Assembly (NCBI GenBank): GCA_023228825.1
Contig: JALOAL010000001.1
Location: forward strand, 43,381-107,380
Direction: 5' to 3'
DNA: 64,000 nucleotides
Source: Dehalococcoidia bacterium
GTDB lineage: Bacteria > Chloroflexota > Dehalococcoidia > UBA2979
The position numbers were made by a program, and so were the translations under genes. Below, one piece after another: positions 26,725-34,579 of this stretch (position 1 is the first letter of the stretch; every line of letters begins with the position of its first letter). The notes below the pieces were generated by a model. It searched no databases. It was not told the DNA's origin and was given only the letters and a program-made list of their open reading frames with translations.

Positions 26725-27286
26725 CTACTCCTCCACGCGGCGGCGTCGAGGCCTGGGCGGCGGGCGGGACGAGGTGGAGTCGGTGGCCCTCGGCGTGGAG
26801 CCGCCCCGGATGCCGGCGCGCGGGGTGGCCTTGGCGTGGTCGGAGCGCTCCGTGTACGTGCCGCGCTCCAACGCCGCGTCCACCTCCGCCAGGTCACGGA
26901 ACGAGGTGGCGCTCAGTTCCGTGGTCAGCGCCTCCTGCGCGCGCTTCCAGTGGACGTGTAGAGGGCAGGCGTGCTCCCAGTCGCACGGACCGCCTCGCAG
27001 CACGCATGACTCCAGGGCCACGGGGCCCTCCGCCATCTCCACCACCTCCAGCAGCGTGATCTCCGCAGGGTCCCGGACCAGCGCGTAGCCGCCGTCCGGC
27101 CCGGCCACGGCGATCAGGAGGCCCTGGCGGACGAGGTTCGCGAGGATCTGCGGCAGGTAGCGCTCCGGGATGTCCATCTCGGCGGCAATCTCTCGCGCCT
27201 TGCGGCGGCCCTGGCCGTGGTGCCGCGCCAGGTCCATGACCGCCCGCACCGTGTAGTCCCCCTTGCGTCCCAGTGTCACTTGCATC
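26725..27286 (-). CDS. nsrR: Rrf2-family transcriptional regulator with three Cys (NsrR/IscR-like), putative NO-responsive regulator
   Basis: MQVTLGRKGDYTVRAVMDLARH...REIAAEMDIPERYLPQILANLVRQGLL plus a CVLRGGPCDWEHAC cluster. Confidence 0.7.
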
Positions 27287-27533
27287 ACAACCGCCTCAAC
27301 GATGACCAGCGAAGTGGATGATACACAGCATGCCATGCTGGACGCCCGCGTGAAGCGGCGGCTGGCGAGGAACGCGGCGAGGGAGGAGCGCCGAGGGCGA
27401 GCGCCGTGGGCCGGCCTCCCGCAGAGAGTCCCGTCCGGGAGGCGACCTTCTGCCCTATGCCGGCGCCGATACGAGTGGAACCGTGGAACTGATGAGAGCA
27501 TCGATAGATGGACCGATGGATGGAGGTGCGGGC

Positions 27534-27968
27534 ATGAGCCTCAAGCAGCGGACGATCGCGGAGATCTCCATGCGCTGGCCGGAGGCGGGGCCGGTGCTGG
27601 AAGCCCACGGGATCGACAATTGTTGCGGCGGCGCTCATACGCTGACCGAAGCGGCAGAGGCCCACGGCGTGGCTGTGGACCTGGTGCTGACGGAACTGGA
27701 GGATGCAGGCGTGACTGAGAGTGACGAGGCGGCAGCCGGCGCGGAGCCGGTGGTGGACGTGCGGCCCCTGCCCCCGCGGGAGAAGCACCCCAAGGTCTTC
27801 GCCACCTTCGACGCGTTGCCCGTGGGCGGCGCGCTGCAGTTGGTGAACGACCATGACCCACGGCCGCTCTTCTACCAGATGCAGGCGGAGCGGCCGGGCC
27901 AGGTGGGCTGGGACCCGCAGGAGCAGGGCCCGGAACGCTGGGTGATCCGCATCGCCAAGGTCGCCTGA
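27534..27968 (+). CDS. ScdA_N (DUF542)-like plus DUF2249-like protein, NO/iron-sulfur-stress associated; alternative start at 27483
   Basis: IAEISMRWPEAGPVLEAHGIDNCCGGAHTL matches the ScdA N-terminal domain signature. The C-terminal FDALPVGGALQLVNDHDPRPLFYQ looks DUF2249-like. It is divergent from the Rrf2 gene. Confidence 0.5.
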   Translation: MSLKQRTIAEISMRWPEAGPVLEAHGIDNCCGGAHTLTEAAEAHGVAVDLVLTELEDAGVTESDEAAAGAEPVVDVRPLPPREKHPKVFATFDALPVGGALQLVNDHDPRPLFYQMQAERPGQVGWDPQEQGPERWVIRIAKVA

Positions 27969-28087: not shown

Positions 28088-28981
28088 TCACGCGTCTTGC
28101 CTTCGGAAGATCGCGTTGGCCGCGACCAGGGGGAGGACGGCCCAGGCCAGCACCGCTGCGGTGAGCACCACGGCGCTGGTGGCCGCGCCGAAGCGCACGT
28201 GCATGTACGCGCCCAGCGGTCCCAGCACGTGCAGATCCGGCTCCAGGCTGAGGATCGCCAGGATGCGCACCGCCTCCACCGGGTTCAGCAGCGTGCTGAG
28301 CAGCAACGTCTCCCCGGAAGACGCCACCGAGAGCGCCATGCCGATGCCCACCAGGTTGTAGAACAGCACCAGCACAAACCACGTCACCACTGCCAGCGCC
28401 AGCGCCTTCGACCGGCCGTCGGACACCACCGAGATCAGCACGCCGATGCTGAGCATGGCGCTGGCAAGGCTCGCCGACAGCACCACGAACAGCAGGTAGT
28501 GCCCGAAGTCCGTCACCGGACTGACCAGGGCAATGAGCAGGCCGGCCGCGCCGAACCCCAGCATCACGGCGGCCCACACCGCAGCCGTCAGGCCCAGGTA
28601 CTTCCCCAACAGCAGTTCCGTGGCGGTGAGGGGCTGCGCGAGCAGCACGCCCAGCGTGCCTCGGTCGCGCTCGCCGGCTATGGCGCCGGCGCCCAGGATG
28701 AGGGCCAGCAGCGGCACGAGCAGCAGGCACAGGTTGATCAGGCTGGCCGTGGTGCGGTTGAACCCCTGCGACGCCACGCCGCCTTCCTGCTGCACGAGCG
28801 CCAGTCCCACCGCGACCAGCGCGAACGTGGCCGCGAACGCCACCAGCCAGCGGCTGCGCACCGCGTCCCGCAGTTCCTTCGCGAAGATCGTGGCCAGTCC
28901 GGCGGTGCGCGGGACCGCCGGTGCGGCCAGCCCCGTGGCCACTCCCGGCGTGCTGATCGGGGCATTCATCGGGGTACTCAC
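28088..28981 (-). CDS. nosY: ABC-2-type permease NosY
   Basis: Six-TM ABC-2 permease encoded immediately downstream of nosF in the nos cluster. Confidence 0.7.
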   Translation of the reverse strand: MSTPMNAPISTPGVATGLAAPAVPRTAGLATIFAKELRDAVRSRWLVAFAATFALVAVGLALVQQEGGVASQGFNRTTASLINLCLLLVPLLALILGAGAIAGERDRGTLGVLLAQPLTATELLLGKYLGLTAAVWAAVMLGFGAAGLLIALVSPVTDFGHYLLFVVLSASLASAMLSIGVLISVVSDGRSKALALAVVTWFVLVLFYNLVGIGMALSVASSGETLLLSTLLNPVEAVRILAILSLEPDLHVLGPLGAYMHVRFGAATSAVVLTAAVLAWAVLPLVAANAIFRRQDA

Positions 28982-29883
28982 TACGGGCCTCCCACTGCTT
29001 GAGGATCGGCCGTGGTGGCCTCCTCCACTCGGAAGTCCAGGATGGTGATGCCGCCCTCCACCAGGGCCTCGAAGACCTTCACTTTCTCGCCGGTGGGGCA
29101 GGTGACTGCCAGCCAGTCGCCGTTGCGGGCCACCTCCTCACCGGCGGCGGCGGCGATCAGGGGGATGGCCTGCGCCGTGTGGCCGTTCAGGCGGAAGAAC
29201 AGGCGGCTGCGCGCGGCGTTCGCACGCACGAACTCGGACGAGGGCCCGAGGAAGGTCGTGCGGCCCTGGTCCAGCACCAGGACGTGATCCGCCGTGGCCG
29301 GGACATCCTCCAGCCAGTGGGTGGAGAGCACCACGCTCTTGCCTCGCGCGCGCTGGGCGCGGATGAAGTCGCGCAACTCCAGGCGTGCCGCCACGTCCAG
29401 CCCCGTGGCGGGCTCGTCCAGGATGAACAGCGCCGGGTCGCCCATCTGCGCCACCGCCAGGCCCAGGCGCTGCCGCATGCCGCCCGAGAGCGCGCCCACC
29501 ATCTTCTCTGCGTGCCCGCCCAGGCCCACGGCCTCCACCGCCTCGCGCGCCCGCTCTTCCGATGCGCCGCGCAGGCGCGCGTAGAACATGGCCGTCTCGC
29601 GCACGCTGAGGTCCACGTGGAACGCCGGGTTCTGCGCCAGGTAGCCGATGCGCCCGCGCGCGCGCTTGCCGTCACGGGCGACGTCCACGCCGTCCACCAG
29701 GATGCGGCCCTGGAAGCGCATCAACCCCACGATGCTCTTGATGAGTGTGGACTTCCCGGCGCCGTTGGCGCCCACCACCGCCAGCACCTGGCCGCCCTGC
29801 AGGTCGAACGTGGCGCCGTCCAGCACCGTGGTGTTGCCGTATCGCTTGGTGACTCCCTGTGCGCTCAGCATGATGGCGTCCAC
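28981..29883 (-). CDS. nosF: ABC transporter ATP-binding protein NosF
   Basis: Walker A GANGAGKST, signature LSGGMRQR and Walker B ILDEP. Sits in nos-cluster context. Confidence 0.8.
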   Translation of the reverse strand: MDAIMLSAQGVTKRYGNTTVLDGATFDLQGGQVLAVVGANGAGKSTLIKSIVGLMRFQGRILVDGVDVARDGKRARGRIGYLAQNPAFHVDLSVRETAMFYARLRGASEERAREAVEAVGLGGHAEKMVGALSGGMRQRLGLAVAQMGDPALFILDEPATGLDVAARLELRDFIRAQRARGKSVVLSTHWLEDVPATADHVLVLDQGRTTFLGPSSEFVRANAARSRLFFRLNGHTAQAIPLIAAAAGEEVARNGDWLAVTCPTGEKVKVFEALVEGGITILDFRVEEATTADPQAVGGP

Positions 29884-31931
29884 TGCCTTCCCATGGTGCG
29901 CTTCGCTGCGACGAAGACCGACAGCGCCGCGGCGGTCAGGGCCAGGCTGACCAGCGCGGGGATGACCTCGAACGTCCGAGGCGTGCCGGAGGCGAGCGTG
30001 ATGGTGGGCGACATCAGCGGGTGCTCGTCCACCACGCGCGGCGTCACGCGGTAGACGGGGAACCAGCGGGCCGCCAGATCCAGCGCGCTGCGCGCCGGCG
30101 TGAACGAGTATGCGCGCACGGCCGGGCTGCGCTGCACCAGTTCGTCGTACGTGCCCTCGTAGCGGTAGGCCAGGTCACCGATGCCGTCGCCGTCCGCGTC
30201 GAAGCCCTGGTAGTCGTCCCAGTAGTTGCCGCGGCCCTCCACGGACCAGCGGTTGCGGTGCTCCAGGTTGCCGCCGCGCGACTCCACCTGCTGCAGGTTG
30301 CCGATGAAACTGTTGCCCAGGAAGGAGACGTCCGTGGTGGTGAAGAGTTCGACCGCGATCTGGTTGGAGGCGATCAGGTTGCCCTGGACCGTCACGAACG
30401 TGCCCGGCGTGCGAGGTGCGCCCTCCATGGTCATCCCCAGCCGGTTGCCGTGGATGCGGTTGCCCTGCAGCAGCACGTCGTCCATGTCCTTCAGGAGCAG
30501 CCCATAGCCCGAGGCCAGCGAGCGGTTGCCGCTGAACTCGTTGTCCACCACGGTCAGCCGCTGCGAGTACATCAGGCTGGCGCCGGCGATGTTCTGCCGG
30601 AACACGTTGCCGGAGGCGTGCAGGTCCTGCGCGTACATGGTGTGCAGGCCGTAGCGCACGTGCGTCACCACGTTGTCGTGGATGCGCGTGTTGCGGGCGA
30701 AGCCGGCAAAGATGCCGTCCTTGGCCAGGGTGATGGTGTTGCCCTCGATCAGGTTGTCCGTGCTGTACCAGAGGTAGAGCGCGTGGCCTCGGCGTTCCGG
30801 AGCCAGGTCCGCCATGCTGCTCACGTAGTTGTCGCGCACCACGTGGCCGCCGCTGCTGAGCAAGGAGATGCCGTAGAGCACGTCCTCAACGCGGTTCCCC
30901 TCCACAGTGGCGTGGTTGCCGGACAGGCGGATGCCGGTGGGCTCGTCCGAGACGTTGCGGGCGGAGTTGCGGACCGTGAAGCCGCGGAGCGTGACGCCGT
31001 CCGCGGTGACCTGCACCACGTCGCCCATGCCGGCGCCGTCCAGCACCACCGTGCCGTCCGCCACCAGGGTGAGCGGTTTGTCCACCACCACCGTGCCCAC
31101 GTACGTGCCCGCCGGCACCGCCAGCGTGCTCCCCTCCACCGCCGCCGCGATCGCCTCGTTGAGGTCGGCCGCGGCGAGGGCTGGCGAGGCGGCCGCGGTG
31201 GCCGAGGGCAGTGCGAGCGCGGCGCCCGTCACCAGCAGCACCGCGACGGCCGCGGCGCCGGTGTTGCTCCAACTCTCGCGCACGAAGCGGACCACGCGGG
31301 GGCCGGCGGCCAGCAACAGCGCCGCTCCCACAAGCATCCAGAACCCGCTATCCACCATGGTCTCCGTGTGGAAGTTCACCACCGTGGTGGTGCCCAGCAC
31401 CTTGGGCGTGAAGGGCTCCAGGCGGATCGGCGCCGAGGGGGCCAGGTCATGGCCATACTGGTAGAGCCACCACTGCAGGTCCACCAGCATCCCCAGCGGG
31501 ACGGAGACCACCGCCGCCGCCAGGAGCAGCCGCACACGCGTGCTCCGAGCCCACACCGCACCCGCCAGCAGCAACAGCACCAGCCCCGCGATGACGAACG
31601 GGAACGCCTTCAGTTCCAACAGCGTGTCCGGGTCGATGGGCCGGATGCCCACGTAGTGGTTCAGCGTGTTGATCTCGGACAGGTCGCCTTCCATGTGCGT
31701 GCCGTAGGCGTAGAGGTGCAGGCCGCCGGGGTACTGAGGCGCCAGCAACTCCATGCGCCACAGCGGGCGGAAGGCCGCCGCCAGCACCGCCAGCGCCGCC
31801 AGCACGGCGCACACGCCCCACACCCGGTCGATGCGAGACCACGCCAGGCTCACCGCGCTCCCCGCCTCCCGAGGCTCCTCGGCCGTCCGTTCTGGACGCT
31901 CCCACGCCCCCGTGTCCTGTCGGGTAGCCAT
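29865..31931 (-). CDS. nosD: NosD-like periplasmic parallel beta-helix copper-processing protein fused to an N-terminal multi-helix membrane domain of about 240 aa and a C-terminal TM anchor
   Basis: Beta-helix repeats (GNHATVEGNRVEDVLYGISLLSSGGHVVRDNYV...GNTITLAKDGIFAGFARNTRIHDNVVTHVRYGLH...) are typical of NosD. The N-terminus has about 6 hydrophobic segments. It overlaps nosF by 19 nt and nosL by 1 nt. Confidence 0.7.
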   Translation of the reverse strand: MATRQDTGAWERPERTAEEPREAGSAVSLAWSRIDRVWGVCAVLAALAVLAAAFRPLWRMELLAPQYPGGLHLYAYGTHMEGDLSEINTLNHYVGIRPIDPDTLLELKAFPFVIAGLVLLLLAGAVWARSTRVRLLLAAAVVSVPLGMLVDLQWWLYQYGHDLAPSAPIRLEPFTPKVLGTTTVVNFHTETMVDSGFWMLVGAALLLAAGPRVVRFVRESWSNTGAAAVAVLLVTGAALALPSATAAASPALAAADLNEAIAAAVEGSTLAVPAGTYVGTVVVDKPLTLVADGTVVLDGAGMGDVVQVTADGVTLRGFTVRNSARNVSDEPTGIRLSGNHATVEGNRVEDVLYGISLLSSGGHVVRDNYVSSMADLAPERRGHALYLWYSTDNLIEGNTITLAKDGIFAGFARNTRIHDNVVTHVRYGLHTMYAQDLHASGNVFRQNIAGASLMYSQRLTVVDNEFSGNRSLASGYGLLLKDMDDVLLQGNRIHGNRLGMTMEGAPRTPGTFVTVQGNLIASNQIAVELFTTTDVSFLGNSFIGNLQQVESRGGNLEHRNRWSVEGRGNYWDDYQGFDADGDGIGDLAYRYEGTYDELVQRSPAVRAYSFTPARSALDLAARWFPVYRVTPRVVDEHPLMSPTITLASGTPRTFEVIPALVSLALTAAALSVFVAAKRTMGRQWTPSC

Positions 31932-32476
31932 TACCGATGCTCCTGCTCCGTCGCGTGGCCGCCGCCTTCGGGGCCGTGGGAGGGCTCCCGGTAGGGCCCG
32001 TGTTCGTGGATGTGCTCCGTCAGGGCGTGCCAGGCGACCACCGTGCCGCCCATCTCCTGGGCCAGGCGGTCGGAGGCGTCCCGGTCCGGCGCTGCCGCAG
32101 CGCCGAAGGCCATGGGGCTGCGGATCTCTGCGGACAGCACGAAGGTCGCCGTCTCCACCGGCGCCCACGCCTCCTCGACGTAGGTGTTCACCCAGTGGCG
32201 AGCGTCGCCCGGCGCGGGGCGTTCAGCGGCCTCCAGCACCAGGCAGCCGATGTCGTCGAAGTGGACTTCGCCGGACTCTGTCGTCCAGGCGGCGGCGAAG
32301 CGCGCGTCGTCGATGATCATGCCGCAGCGCGCGCACGCCTCCTCGCCGTAGCGCACCACGGGCTCGCGGTCAGGGTCCAGGTCCTCGCCCTCCAGGAGGG
32401 CCGGCACGGCCACGATGGCGACCCCGACCGCACCGGCCGAACCAGCCAGGATGAGGAACCGTCTTCGAGTAACCAT
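31931..32476 (-). CDS. nosL: NosL-family copper chaperone with a twin-arginine signal
   Basis: RRRFLILAGSAGAVGVAIVA Tat motif, a CARCGM copper-binding motif and a C-terminal Met/His-rich tail. Confidence 0.7.
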   Translation of the reverse strand: MVTRRRFLILAGSAGAVGVAIVAVPALLEGEDLDPDREPVVRYGEEACARCGMIIDDARFAAAWTTESGEVHFDDIGCLVLEAAERPAPGDARHWVNTYVEEAWAPVETATFVLSAEIRSPMAFGAAAAPDRDASDRLAQEMGGTVVAWHALTEHIHEHGPYREPSHGPEGGGHATEQEHR

Positions 32477-32548
32477 GGTCGTCACCTCCTGAGGTGTCCC
32501 GCGGGGTGTGTGCCGGCGGCCCCCCTCCGCCGGCACACGGATCCCCCG

Positions 32549-34579
32549 CTACGCGACGAGCATCCAGCCCTGCATCTCCAGGTGGAGCGCGGAGCAGAAC
32601 TCGGTGCAGTACATGGCGAAGGAACCCTGGACGTCCGCGACAAAGTCGATGCGCGTGTACTCACCCGGGTCGAGGCTGACGCTGACGTTGTGGCGCGGGA
32701 TGGCGAACCCGTGCGTGGCGTCCGGCGTGGTCTCGATGTTGGTGAGGTGCAACGTGACCTGGTCGCCCTGGTTCAGGCGCAGGATGTCCGGCTTGAACTG
32801 GGAGCGCGTGACGGACATGAAGACCTCCACGCGGTTGCCGTCCCGCTCGATGCGCTCCTCGCCCTGCGCCACGGCGTTGGGGTCTGGCTGCATCGTCAGT
32901 GGGTTCGTGCCGGGCGGGTACAGGTCCCACGCCTTGATGCGGTCCGCGCGGATCGCCTGCACGTAGTGCGGCTCCGCCATGCCGATGGGCGTGTCCGACA
33001 GCACCTCCATCACCTCGCCTCCGAGGTCGACCAGTTGGAAGTTCTGCGGGTTCAGCGTCCCCACCGGCGAGTGGCGGTCAATGGACCACTTGTTCAGCGC
33101 GATGAGGTACTTGCCCTGGGGCTTGGTGGTGTCGCCTTCCATGGTGCAGAGGTGGCCGATGTTGTAGTGGACCGGCACCTTGTCCACGAGTTTGTAGGCC
33201 TGGTCGCCGCTGAAGTACGGCTCGCCCAGGGTGAACTTGGCCACCGCGCTCTCCAGGAAGAGGCTGGTGTAGCCGTGCCCGTCCGCGTCGTACTGCGTGT
33301 GCAGCGGGCCGGCGCCCACCTCCACGCGGCCAGAGACCACGGAGTCGTAGTTCAGGACGGGGATGCCGTACTGGTCGCGCTTCTCGAAGTCTTGGGCCTC
33401 AATCGCGGCCAGCATCTTCTCGAAGGAGTAGATGGTGACGTACGGGTCCAGTTTGCCGGCCACGCAGAGGTAGCCGCCGTCCGGGCTCACGTCCACGCCG
33501 TGCGGGCTCCGAGGCTCCGGCGCCAGGAAGAGGATGCCCTCCTCCACCGCCACGTCCAGCGGGATGACGCGCATGCCGTTGATGACCACGGACCGCGAGC
33601 CCACCACCTGCTCGGCCTTCTGCCAGTTGATGATGTGCATGTAGTCGAAGTCGTTGGCGGACGCGCCCACCTCAATCGGGGGCTTGCCCTCCAGGTTGCC
33701 GCCCGTGGCCATCTCGCTGTTGTAGGAGTTCAGGAACACCCAGCCGTGGCTCACCAGTTTCCCGGAGTCCGCCAGGTCCTGCGTGTACGGCGGCAACTCC
33801 ACCTGGAAACTGCGTGCCAGGTCAAAGCGCCCCGTCTCCTGGTCCACGGCCAGGAAGGTGGAGTAGCCGCGGTACACGTCCGCGAAGTTCTCCAGCGACG
33901 TGGCCGGGTCCGCGCCCTCTATCAGCGTGGGCGTCTTGGTGGAGATGTGCGCGTACTCCGTGTTCTGAGTGACGAACACCCCCCCGTGCGAGGACTGCAG
34001 GTTGGGCACGTCGTAGATCTGCTTCGTCTTGAAGTCCCGCATGTCCACCATGGCGATGCGCCCGTTGGCGCGGTCGTTGATGTAGACGAAGCGGCCGTCG
34101 TACTCGCCCTCCGTCTCGCTGATCGCGGGGTGGTGGGTGTCCGCCCAGGAGAGGTACCGGTGGGCCGAGGTGGACGGCCCGCCGGCGGACGTGGTGCCCT
34201 CCGCCAGCAGTCCGTCCGACTCGTTGCCGAAGCCGAAGCCCTGCCACGGCTCCGGCGTGAACACGCCCACTACCTTCTTGATCTTCATGGACGGCACGCC
34301 CATGACCAGGATCTGGCCGGAGTGGCCGCCCGAGGACAGGATGTAGAACTCGTCCATATCCGGTCGTCCGGGCGGGACCACCGTCTTGAGGGCCTGCACC
34401 ACCTCCGCAGGCGAGAGGCCGCGGGCCTCCGCCACGCTGTTCGCGTCGCCCGTCAGTCCAGAGGGCCCGGAGGCCCCGTCCCCCTCGTCGCTGAGCGTCT
34501 TGCCCAGCACCCCGCCGACCACCAGGCCGGCAGCGCCGGTGGCTGAACCCGCAATGAACTCTCGCCTCGTGACCGCCAT
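32549..34579 (-). CDS. nosZ: Nitrous-oxide reductase NosZ
   Basis: Tat-type N-terminus (TRREFIAG), a beta-propeller region with CuZ-ligand histidines, DTHHPA (a DxHH-type, clade-II-like motif) and a C-terminal CuA cupredoxin motif (H..YCTEFCSALHLEM). Confidence 0.9.
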   Translation of the reverse strand: MAVTRREFIAGSATGAAGLVVGGVLGKTLSDEGDGASGPSGLTGDANSVAEARGLSPAEVVQALKTVVPPGRPDMDEFYILSSGGHSGQILVMGVPSMKIKKVVGVFTPEPWQGFGFGNESDGLLAEGTTSAGGPSTSAHRYLSWADTHHPAISETEGEYDGRFVYINDRANGRIAMVDMRDFKTKQIYDVPNLQSSHGGVFVTQNTEYAHISTKTPTLIEGADPATSLENFADVYRGYSTFLAVDQETGRFDLARSFQVELPPYTQDLADSGKLVSHGWVFLNSYNSEMATGGNLEGKPPIEVGASANDFDYMHIINWQKAEQVVGSRSVVINGMRVIPLDVAVEEGILFLAPEPRSPHGVDVSPDGGYLCVAGKLDPYVTIYSFEKMLAAIEAQDFEKRDQYGIPVLNYDSVVSGRVEVGAGPLHTQYDADGHGYTSLFLESAVAKFTLGEPYFSGDQAYKLVDKVPVHYNIGHLCTMEGDTTKPQGKYLIALNKWSIDRHSPVGTLNPQNFQLVDLGGEVMEVLSDTPIGMAEPHYVQAIRADRIKAWDLYPPGTNPLTMQPDPNAVAQGEERIERDGNRVEVFMSVTRSQFKPDILRLNQGDQVTLHLTNIETTPDATHGFAIPRHNVSVSLDPGEYTRIDFVADVQGSFAMYCTEFCSALHLEMQGWMLVA

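Follow-up and report, generated by a model that had tools for sequence, protein, structure and literature searches.

A probable natural nosB-nosD gene fusion in a clade II-type nos cluster of a Dehalococcoidia bacterium

A 64,000-nucleotide stretch of the genome of a Dehalococcoidia bacterium (GenBank assembly GCA_023228825.1, contig JALOAL010000001.1, positions 43,381 to 107,380; hereafter the window) carries on its minus strand a single open reading frame (ORF; 29865-31931) in which a membrane domain is followed by the beta-helix protein NosD. We consider it probable, at roughly 80%, that this ORF is a natural nosB-nosD gene fusion, joining NosB, a membrane protein of clade II nos clusters, to the NosD subunit of the NosDFY-NosL machinery. 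NosZ is, to our knowledge, the only biological sink known for nitrous oxide (N2O), a greenhouse gas, and clade II organisms are dominant in many environments. Clade II nos clusters have NosB as a hallmark. As for NosD, it docks on the membrane complex NosFY, and within NosDFY-NosL it takes Cu(I) from NosL to apo-NosZ in a process driven by NosF and NosY; by homology and by the set of genes present, the NosD half of the fusion should act in this way too.

The initial annotation of this ORF had proposed that a NosB-like protein was fused in front of NosD, and this proposal was supported. The N-terminal domain gave no Pfam match even at E ≤ 10 and none in NCBIfam; since neither collection holds a model for NosB, the identification rests on reference NosB sequences, which were taken from the supplement of a published paper (Text S1 of PMC11409646). 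Residues ~34-222 shared 31% identity over 156 amino acids (aa) with NosB of Sulfurimonas denitrificans (ABB45043.1; BLASTP, E 2e-22), and the two stretches described as NosB signatures, LNHY[IV]GM and YGH[ND] (PMC9697520, citing van Spanning 2011), were both recognised in the window protein (Table 1). When fused, free and epsilonproteobacterial NosB sequences were aligned, W58, A64, P65, L71, H92, Y93, G95, G180 and F187 were invariant. A search with residues 1-250 retrieved membrane proteins of 215-233 aa encoded on their own, as well as a 283-aa protein on a short contig, and two of the free homologues (X) were encoded in nos clusters together with nosZ and nosD, in the orders nosZ-X-nosD-nosF-nosY-nosL (locus L004) and X-nosZ-nosD-nosF-nosL-nosY (locus L001). 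The window domain is likewise encoded in a clade II-type nos cluster beside nosZ, and its four transmembrane (TM) helices, found both by hydropathy and in an AlphaFold2 (AF2) model, fall within the definition of NosB as a small polytopic membrane protein with four (or six) such helices (10.1101/2024.05.17.594689).

Clade II NosB proteins (those of Wolinella succinogenes and Gemmatimonas, and the NosB moieties of the Sulfurimonas/Sulfurospirillum NosB-NosC2 proteins) have in common with the window domain this four-TM core, the APxYP, LNHYxGM, YGH and PFTP motifs in the periplasmic loops and a location beside nosD in a nos cluster. They differ from it in being free proteins of ~200 aa, whereas the window NosB forms the N-terminal part of a longer chain, and in their NosZ partners, which carry a general secretory (Sec) signal where the window NosZ has a twin-arginine translocation (Tat) signal. 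Judged by its sequence, the N-terminal domain is a true NosB homologue. For W. succinogenes, a nosB deletion has been described which indicates that the gene is required for N2O respiration (Hein et al. 2017, as cited in PMC9697520 and PMC13274427).

The NosD half was identified by profile and by fold. Residues 257-640 matched TIGR04247 with 378.2 bits (cutoff 300) and PF05048 with 142.9 bits (cutoff 23.6; E 1.3e-41), and the best fold matches in the PDB (Foldseek) were the NosD chains of NosDFY, 7o0y_A, 7osf_A and 7o17_A, with target-normalised template modelling scores (TM-scores) of 0.72-0.81 and E-values down to 3e-14. The NosD of Pseudomonas stutzeri (7O0Y, 7OSF) and that of the window are alike in their beta-helix fold (TM-score 0.76-0.81), in belonging to TIGR04247 and in having nosF and nosY immediately downstream. 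However, P. stutzeri NosD is soluble, resides in the periplasm and loses an N-terminal signal peptide by cleavage, whereas the window NosD is preceded by NosB (222 aa) and by an internal signal-peptide-like helix (226-246), and is followed by a C-terminal TM helix (655-677). This departure from the canonical NosD architecture is a variant feature and provides no argument against homology.

Hydrophobic helices were located by Kyte-Doolittle hydropathy and in the AF2 model, which was built on 78 homologues and reached a mean predicted local distance difference test score (pLDDT) of 88.8 over the full length. Both approaches agreed on helices at residues 36-54, 105-127, 131-161 and 195-223, on a weaker one at 226-246 (TM5), and on one at 655-677. 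The N-terminal extension of about 240 aa with roughly six helices given in the initial annotation was thus correct as to the extension (about 250 aa) but not as to the helices, of which five (four plus one) precede NosD; the C-terminal TM helix it had predicted was present. Positively charged residues (K/R) were enriched in loop 2 (ARSTRV), in loop 4 (VVRFVRESW) and in the C-terminal tail (KRTMGRQ), and from this clustering we infer a topology with six TM helices, both termini inside, and the NosB loops and NosD outside; the tail formed by residues 1-33 would then be cytoplasmic. The last crossing back to the cytoplasm is independently supported, because in NosD::NosF and NosB::NosD::NosF fusions the TM helix after NosD runs straight into the cytoplasmic ATPase of the ATP-binding cassette (ABC) type. 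Given the even number of NosB helices and their cytoplasmic start, TM5 (h-region AAAVAVLLVTGAALAL, c-region PSATA/AAS) is needed to place NosD outside.

When modelled alone (residues 30-222), the NosB domain reached a pLDDT of 96.7 and formed a four-helix bundle with a periplasmic beta-sheet derived from loops 1 and 3. A fold comparison of this model with the PDB returned, as its top 50 matches, exclusively proteins of the claudin/TARP/GSG1L/DUOXA1 type, with TM-scores of 0.41-0.47 and E-values from 2.5e-4 upward. Claudin, TARP and PMP-22 proteins and the predicted NosB are alike in their four-helix bundle and in an extracytoplasmic sheet made mostly of loop 1 plus strands of loop 3. The claudin/PMP-22 superfamily is recognised by a four-TM bundle with a five-stranded extracellular sheet and by a W-GLW-C-C signature; this signature, with its Cys pair, is nevertheless absent from NosB, there is no sequence similarity, and the NosB alignment profile found no match among PDB sequences. 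The likeness seen in the model is one of shape, an analogy that gives no evidence of common descent. Claudin- and TARP-type proteins are typically auxiliary or scaffolding subunits; by analogy, such a role would be compatible with what we propose below for NosB, and it proves nothing.

The fused architecture is widespread. A full-length search yielded ~95 protein clusters (at the 90% identity level) of 600-740 aa that span both halves at 30-81% identity. In addition, 80 loci were kept from a scan in which a NosB profile was run against a single genome of each GTDB species; 49 of them were fused (one frame, no stop), 28 split and 3 cut by contig ends. Orthologous fusions, which the initial annotation had suggested looking for in related genomes, were thus found in 49 of the 77 complete species-level loci. 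Fused Chloroflexota loci were labelled Dehalococcoidia, Tepidiformaceae, Anaerolineaceae and others; further fused forms came from Acidobacteriota (Vicinamibacterales, Thermoanaerobaculia) and from one Kapaibacterium, and an Omnitrophica-labelled protein (P0090) was fused as well. The Actinomycetota loci were all split. Mean identity to the window protein among the fused family was 50% in the NosB part, 50% in the NosD part, 29% in the linker and 17-27% in the tails, so that the conservation of the N-terminal domain across related nos clusters, on which the initial proposal depended, equals that of NosD. As its retention in lineages diverged to 30% identity suggests, the fusion is under selection. 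Fused and split states were interleaved in a NosB+NosD tree (a quick neighbour-joining distance tree, with no reconciliation), indicating that fusion or fission occurred several times.

Where TM5 came from was indicated by comparison with the split loci. There, as in L028 and L034, the NosB reading frame stops a few residues past its conserved tail (…RF[LV]xxSW[SA]NTG…), and NosD starts anew with a Met and a typical signal peptide of its own. In the fused proteins the NosB tail runs directly into a signal-peptide-like segment with a 10-16-residue hydrophobic core, a Pro/Gly c-region and small residues, and the n-region of TM5 is positive. Because the NosD of split loci starts with a signal peptide at the same position, TM5 is, on this comparison, the former Sec signal peptide of NosD. 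Five split loci (L028, 5914-8112; L034; L057; L058; L077) have nosB and nosD in the same frame with one stop codon between them and the NosD start codon downstream of that stop; a single stop-codon change could therefore make or break the fusion. The fusion probably arose through loss of the nosB stop codon and of the short spacer before nosD. In the resulting protein the N-terminus would be cytoplasmic and the four NosB helices would expose two periplasmic loops forming the beta-sheet, after which a short positive cytoplasmic loop would lead into the fifth helix, the old NosD signal peptide, taking the chain back out. The NosD beta-helix would lie in the periplasm-equivalent space, and the sixth helix would return the C-terminus to the cytoplasm. 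NosB and NosD would be made and inserted together at 1:1, beside the NosL, NosF and NosY of the same translationally coupled operon.

The C-terminal anchor has a distribution of its own. It was present in all 43 fused Chloroflexota NosD, in 16 of the 19 split Chloroflexota ones (the three scored as anchor-less lie just under the anchor threshold), in 7 of 7 Actinomycetota and in the single Kapaibacterium locus, and it was absent from the three fused forms of Acidobacteriota (3/3) and from a fused group of ~605-616 aa. Found in fused and unfused NosD alike, the anchor is independent of the fusion. The phyla that mainly carry it are generally regarded as monoderm, and a soluble 'periplasmic' protein would be lost there. 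The further suggestion of the initial annotation, that the fusion serves to tether the maturation machinery to the membrane, is not supported here: NosD already docks on NosFY, the anchor is equally present in unfused NosD and the link between the two halves may be cut.

NosB was also found in other combinations. An exhaustive phmmer search with NosB returned 922 representatives at E ≤ 1e-3, and architectures were read from the best 150 of these 922. Among those 150 there were free NosB proteins, NosB-NosD (~32, judged by length), NosB-NosL (in 6 of the 10 mid-length proteins tested), NosB-NosD-NosF (6 proteins) and tandem NosB-NosB, including one NosB-NosB-NosD-NosF chain. NosB::NosD::NosF triple fusions (locus L006, 106-2709, and proteins P0160, P0216, P0223, P0228, P0247 and P0263) were 867-1149 aa long, the one in L006 being followed by nosY and nosL. 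With such a chain, each NosF dimer would come with two NosD, in contrast to the NosD:NosF:NosY ratio of 1:2:2 in P. stutzeri. Tandem NosB-NosB was seen in P0139 (383 aa) and in residues 1-~390 of P0160, the second copy having degenerate motifs, and hints that NosB may act as a dimer or pseudo-dimer. Fusions of NosF to NosY, with ATPase and permease in one chain, occurred together with an anchor-less NosB::NosD in locus L005 (11827-13470) and in L051 and L052, both from Acidobacteriota (Vicinamibacterales). In P0131 (409 aa), NosB is followed by an out-of-frame low-complexity tail that looks like an assembly or read artefact, and not every long NosB match is therefore a true fusion.

Two kinds of NosB fusion had been reported before, with NosL in Dyadobacter and Flavobacterium (PMC9697520) and with the cytochrome c NosC2 in Campylobacterota (PMC11409646). 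Both resemble the window protein in that an N-terminal NosB is joined to a periplasmic nos accessory protein via a further membrane-crossing segment; the partner differs, being NosL or NosC2 in the known fusions and NosD (NosD-NosF in relatives) in those described here. In the literature open to search, neither a NosB-NosD nor a NosB-NosD-NosF fusion was described, and the only matches were gene lists of the form 'nosBDLYF'; a mention in Hein et al. 2017 or Hein & Simon 2019 is possible. The NosB-NosD combination thus appears to be undescribed, while NosB, NosD, NosB-NosL and NosB-NosC2 were already known.

The extent of the ORF itself is well defined. It runs, as initially annotated, from an ATG at 31931 to a stop codon at 29865-29867, and a database protein of 688 aa (P0011, listed by NCBI as 'MAG: Dehalococcoidia bacterium NosD', where MAG stands for metagenome-assembled genome) is 100% identical to its product, which confirms the ATG start. 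The GTG at 32168, the mechanical limit of the ORF, was rejected as a start, because it overlaps nosL in another frame and P0011 begins at the ATG. A translation start for NosD within the ORF was rejected as well: there is no Met, and the nearest in-frame GTG has the only GGAG ~21 nt upstream of it and, as a start codon, would also truncate the signal peptide.

That a frameshift or a lost stop codon in a MAG merged two separate genes, a possibility already raised in the initial annotation, is extremely improbable. The source is indeed a MAG, and some relatives carry junk tails, P0131 among them, but the same continuous architecture recurs in the ~95 independent clusters and 49 species-representative genomes, which come from many studies; moreover, the linker of the window ORF has no in-frame stop and the G+C content at third codon positions (GC3) stays at 0.90. 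Much more weight should be given to the idea that the fused protein is a polyprotein precursor, which signal peptidase I would cut after TM5, releasing a NosB of five helices and a normal NosD that here carries a C-terminal anchor. If so, the fusion would provide co-translation, co-insertion and a fixed stoichiometry alone, with no permanent tether. TM5 does look like a signal peptide, with its positive n-region, 10-16-residue h-region and Pro/Gly c-region; the aligned -1 position holds a small residue in 79%, and the -3 position in 65%, of 78 fused proteins, and in 65 of the 78 the NosD block is preceded, at a distance of 3-10 residues, by a strict AxA-type site, against 52.5 expected from composition-preserving shuffles. 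The segment after the site has a pLDDT <50 and is probably exposed, and the Acidobacteriota-type fused forms lack a C-terminal anchor and have very short h-regions. The AxA enrichment, though real, is modest (about 3 standard deviations) because the linkers are Ala-rich, and in the window protein the best-aligned position places a Pro at +1 or close to it, the one site that fits being the alternative ATA/AAS. A precedent is the Bradyrhizobium cytochrome b-c1 precursor FbcH, which is unrelated to the window protein but has the same layout of polytopic membrane moiety, internal signal peptide, periplasmic domain and C-terminal TM anchor, and which is described as being cut at its internal signal peptide; processing of the window protein is conjectural. 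On balance, we rate cleavage as a serious possibility that falls somewhat short of an even chance.

Up to 2026, papers still describe NosB as having no known function. The partners to which we found it fused, NosL, NosD and NosD-NosF, all belong to the copper-centre assembly machinery, and these fusions therefore place NosB with copper maturation; the window cluster, moreover, keeps NosB yet has no NosGH/NosC1/C2 or NosR module. We favour the view, suggested by these gene combinations, that NosB would serve the copper-insertion complex as an auxiliary membrane subunit. In its full form, with NosB as an integral auxiliary subunit of the clade II NosDFY-NosL machine and the fused forms as polyproteins that may be cut internally, this proposal is tentative, and we give it almost, but not quite, even odds. 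Several observations weigh against the fusion as a functional unit or against this role. Separate genes are used by 28 of the 77 relatives with complete loci, and covalent linkage is therefore not required; the full-length AF2 model has a predicted template modelling score (pTM) of just 0.68; and NosB lacks the conserved Cys or Met residues that are usual at Cu(I) sites, H92 being the sole invariant candidate metal ligand and H161 frequent but not universal. The NosB-NosC2 cytochrome fusions of Campylobacterota (PMC11409646), for their part, point to electron transfer and away from copper handling.

These last fusions are also an argument for placing NosB on the electron-delivery side, where it would link NosZ to a redox partner in the membrane, the joining with NosD being an accident of gene adjacency devoid of functional meaning. 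A role in electron transport has been among the published speculations on NosB (PMC9697520), and since nosB and nosD adjoin in most clade II clusters, loss of a stop codon would be an easy accident, in keeping with the interleaving of fused and split states. An accident of this kind would not, however, be expected to persist across lineages to 30% identity in at least three phyla, nor to be extended to NosF several times and accompanied by NosB-NosL fusions. NosB, in addition, has no conserved cofactor-binding Cys and no haem or iron-sulphur motif, and the window cluster lacks a quinol-dehydrogenase module that NosB could serve. We regard an electron-delivery role as unlikely.

The coordinates of the fusion, its parts and the neighbouring nos genes are collected in Table 1. 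The window has a G+C content of ~70%, and the ORFs of the minus-strand operon have GC3 values near 0.9. The genes follow one another in the order cupredoxin-nosZ-nosL-nosB::nosD-nosF-nosY and are tightly coupled: the nosL stop codon is overlapped by the ATG of the fusion ORF (TAATG), the end of the fusion ORF and the start of nosF share sequence, as do the nosF stop and the nosY start.

Table 1. Features of the nosB::nosD fusion and of the surrounding nos operon (positions in the window).
Feature	Position	Strand	Remarks
Cupredoxin (plastocyanin/azurin-like), 146 aa	34628..35068	-	Signal peptide ending ...AASVAC; directly upstream of nosZ
nosZ	32549..34579	-	TIGR04246 758 bits (cutoff 625); N-terminus MAVTRREFI
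nosL, Cu chaperone	31931..32536	-	Tat-like RRRF signal; stop overlaps fusion ATG
nosB::nosD fusion ORF, 688 aa plus stop	29865..31931	-	100% identical to database protein P0011; GC3 0.90
Residues 1-33, variable charged N-terminal tail	31833..31931	-	pLDDT <50; mean identity to homologues 17%
Residues 34-222, NosB domain, four TM helices	31266..31832	-	BLASTP to reference NosB E 2e-22; domain pLDDT 96.7
NosB motif LNHYVGI, residues 90-96	31644..31664	-	H92, Y93 and G95 invariant
NosB motif YGHD, residues 159-162	31446..31457	-	Motif defined in PMC9697520
Residues 223-250, end of NosB tail (SWSNTG), TM5 and flexible linker	31182..31265	-	Comparison with split loci; low pLDDT
Residues 251-645, NosD parallel beta-helix, predicted periplasmic	29997..31181	-	TIGR04247, PF05048, PDB fold matches
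Residues 646-688, TM anchor (655-677), short positive tail, predicted cytoplasmic (KRTMGRQWTPSC), and stop	29865..29996	-	Hydropathy, AF2, conservation
nosF, ABC ATPase	28981..29883	-	Start overlaps fusion-ORF end
nosY, ABC-2 permease	28088..28981	-	Start overlaps nosF stop

The window NosZ, which gave 398 bits, under the cutoff, with the clade I model TIGR04244, appears from these profile scores to be of clade II and yet has a twin-arginine signal, in agreement with the exception (Tat plus nosB) reported for some Chloroflexota (PMC11409646). The NosL match was weak (PF05573, 29 bits); the window NosL has a hydrophobic helix besides its Tat-like signal and lacks a lipobox Cys, whereas proteobacterial NosL is a lipoprotein, and the true nosL start may be the Met at codon 21. 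As its signal peptide ends in Cys, the cupredoxin is probably a lipoprotein. Most related loci keep a cupredoxin gene upstream of nosZ. No genes for NosR, NosX, NosGH or NosC were found in the scanned stretch of the window (~21-39 kb), and the cupredoxin, the sole electron-transfer candidate encoded in the cluster, is therefore the likely electron donor to NosZ. Just downstream of nosY lie genes for an Rrf2-family (NsrR-like) regulator (26725-27501, minus strand) and for a protein of the ScdA_N/DUF2249 family (27483-27968, plus strand), which is related to the repair of iron centres; an Rrf2 gene also precedes nosZ in locus L004.

Because no Pfam or NCBIfam model exists for NosB, the fusion is annotated merely as 'NosD' in databases, and surveys of the presence or absence of nosB will miss NosB in many Chloroflexota and Acidobacteriota. 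We see in the fusion a useful natural experiment on the open question of NosB rather than a new mechanism, and the fused proteins are ready single-chain constructs for structural work. A widespread and conserved NosB-NosD fusion leads to the testable hypothesis that NosB is part of the copper-centre assembly complex. If NosB is indeed an auxiliary subunit of that complex, the natural fusions, the tandem NosB-NosB forms included, would settle the old question of its function and would fix its position within the complex.

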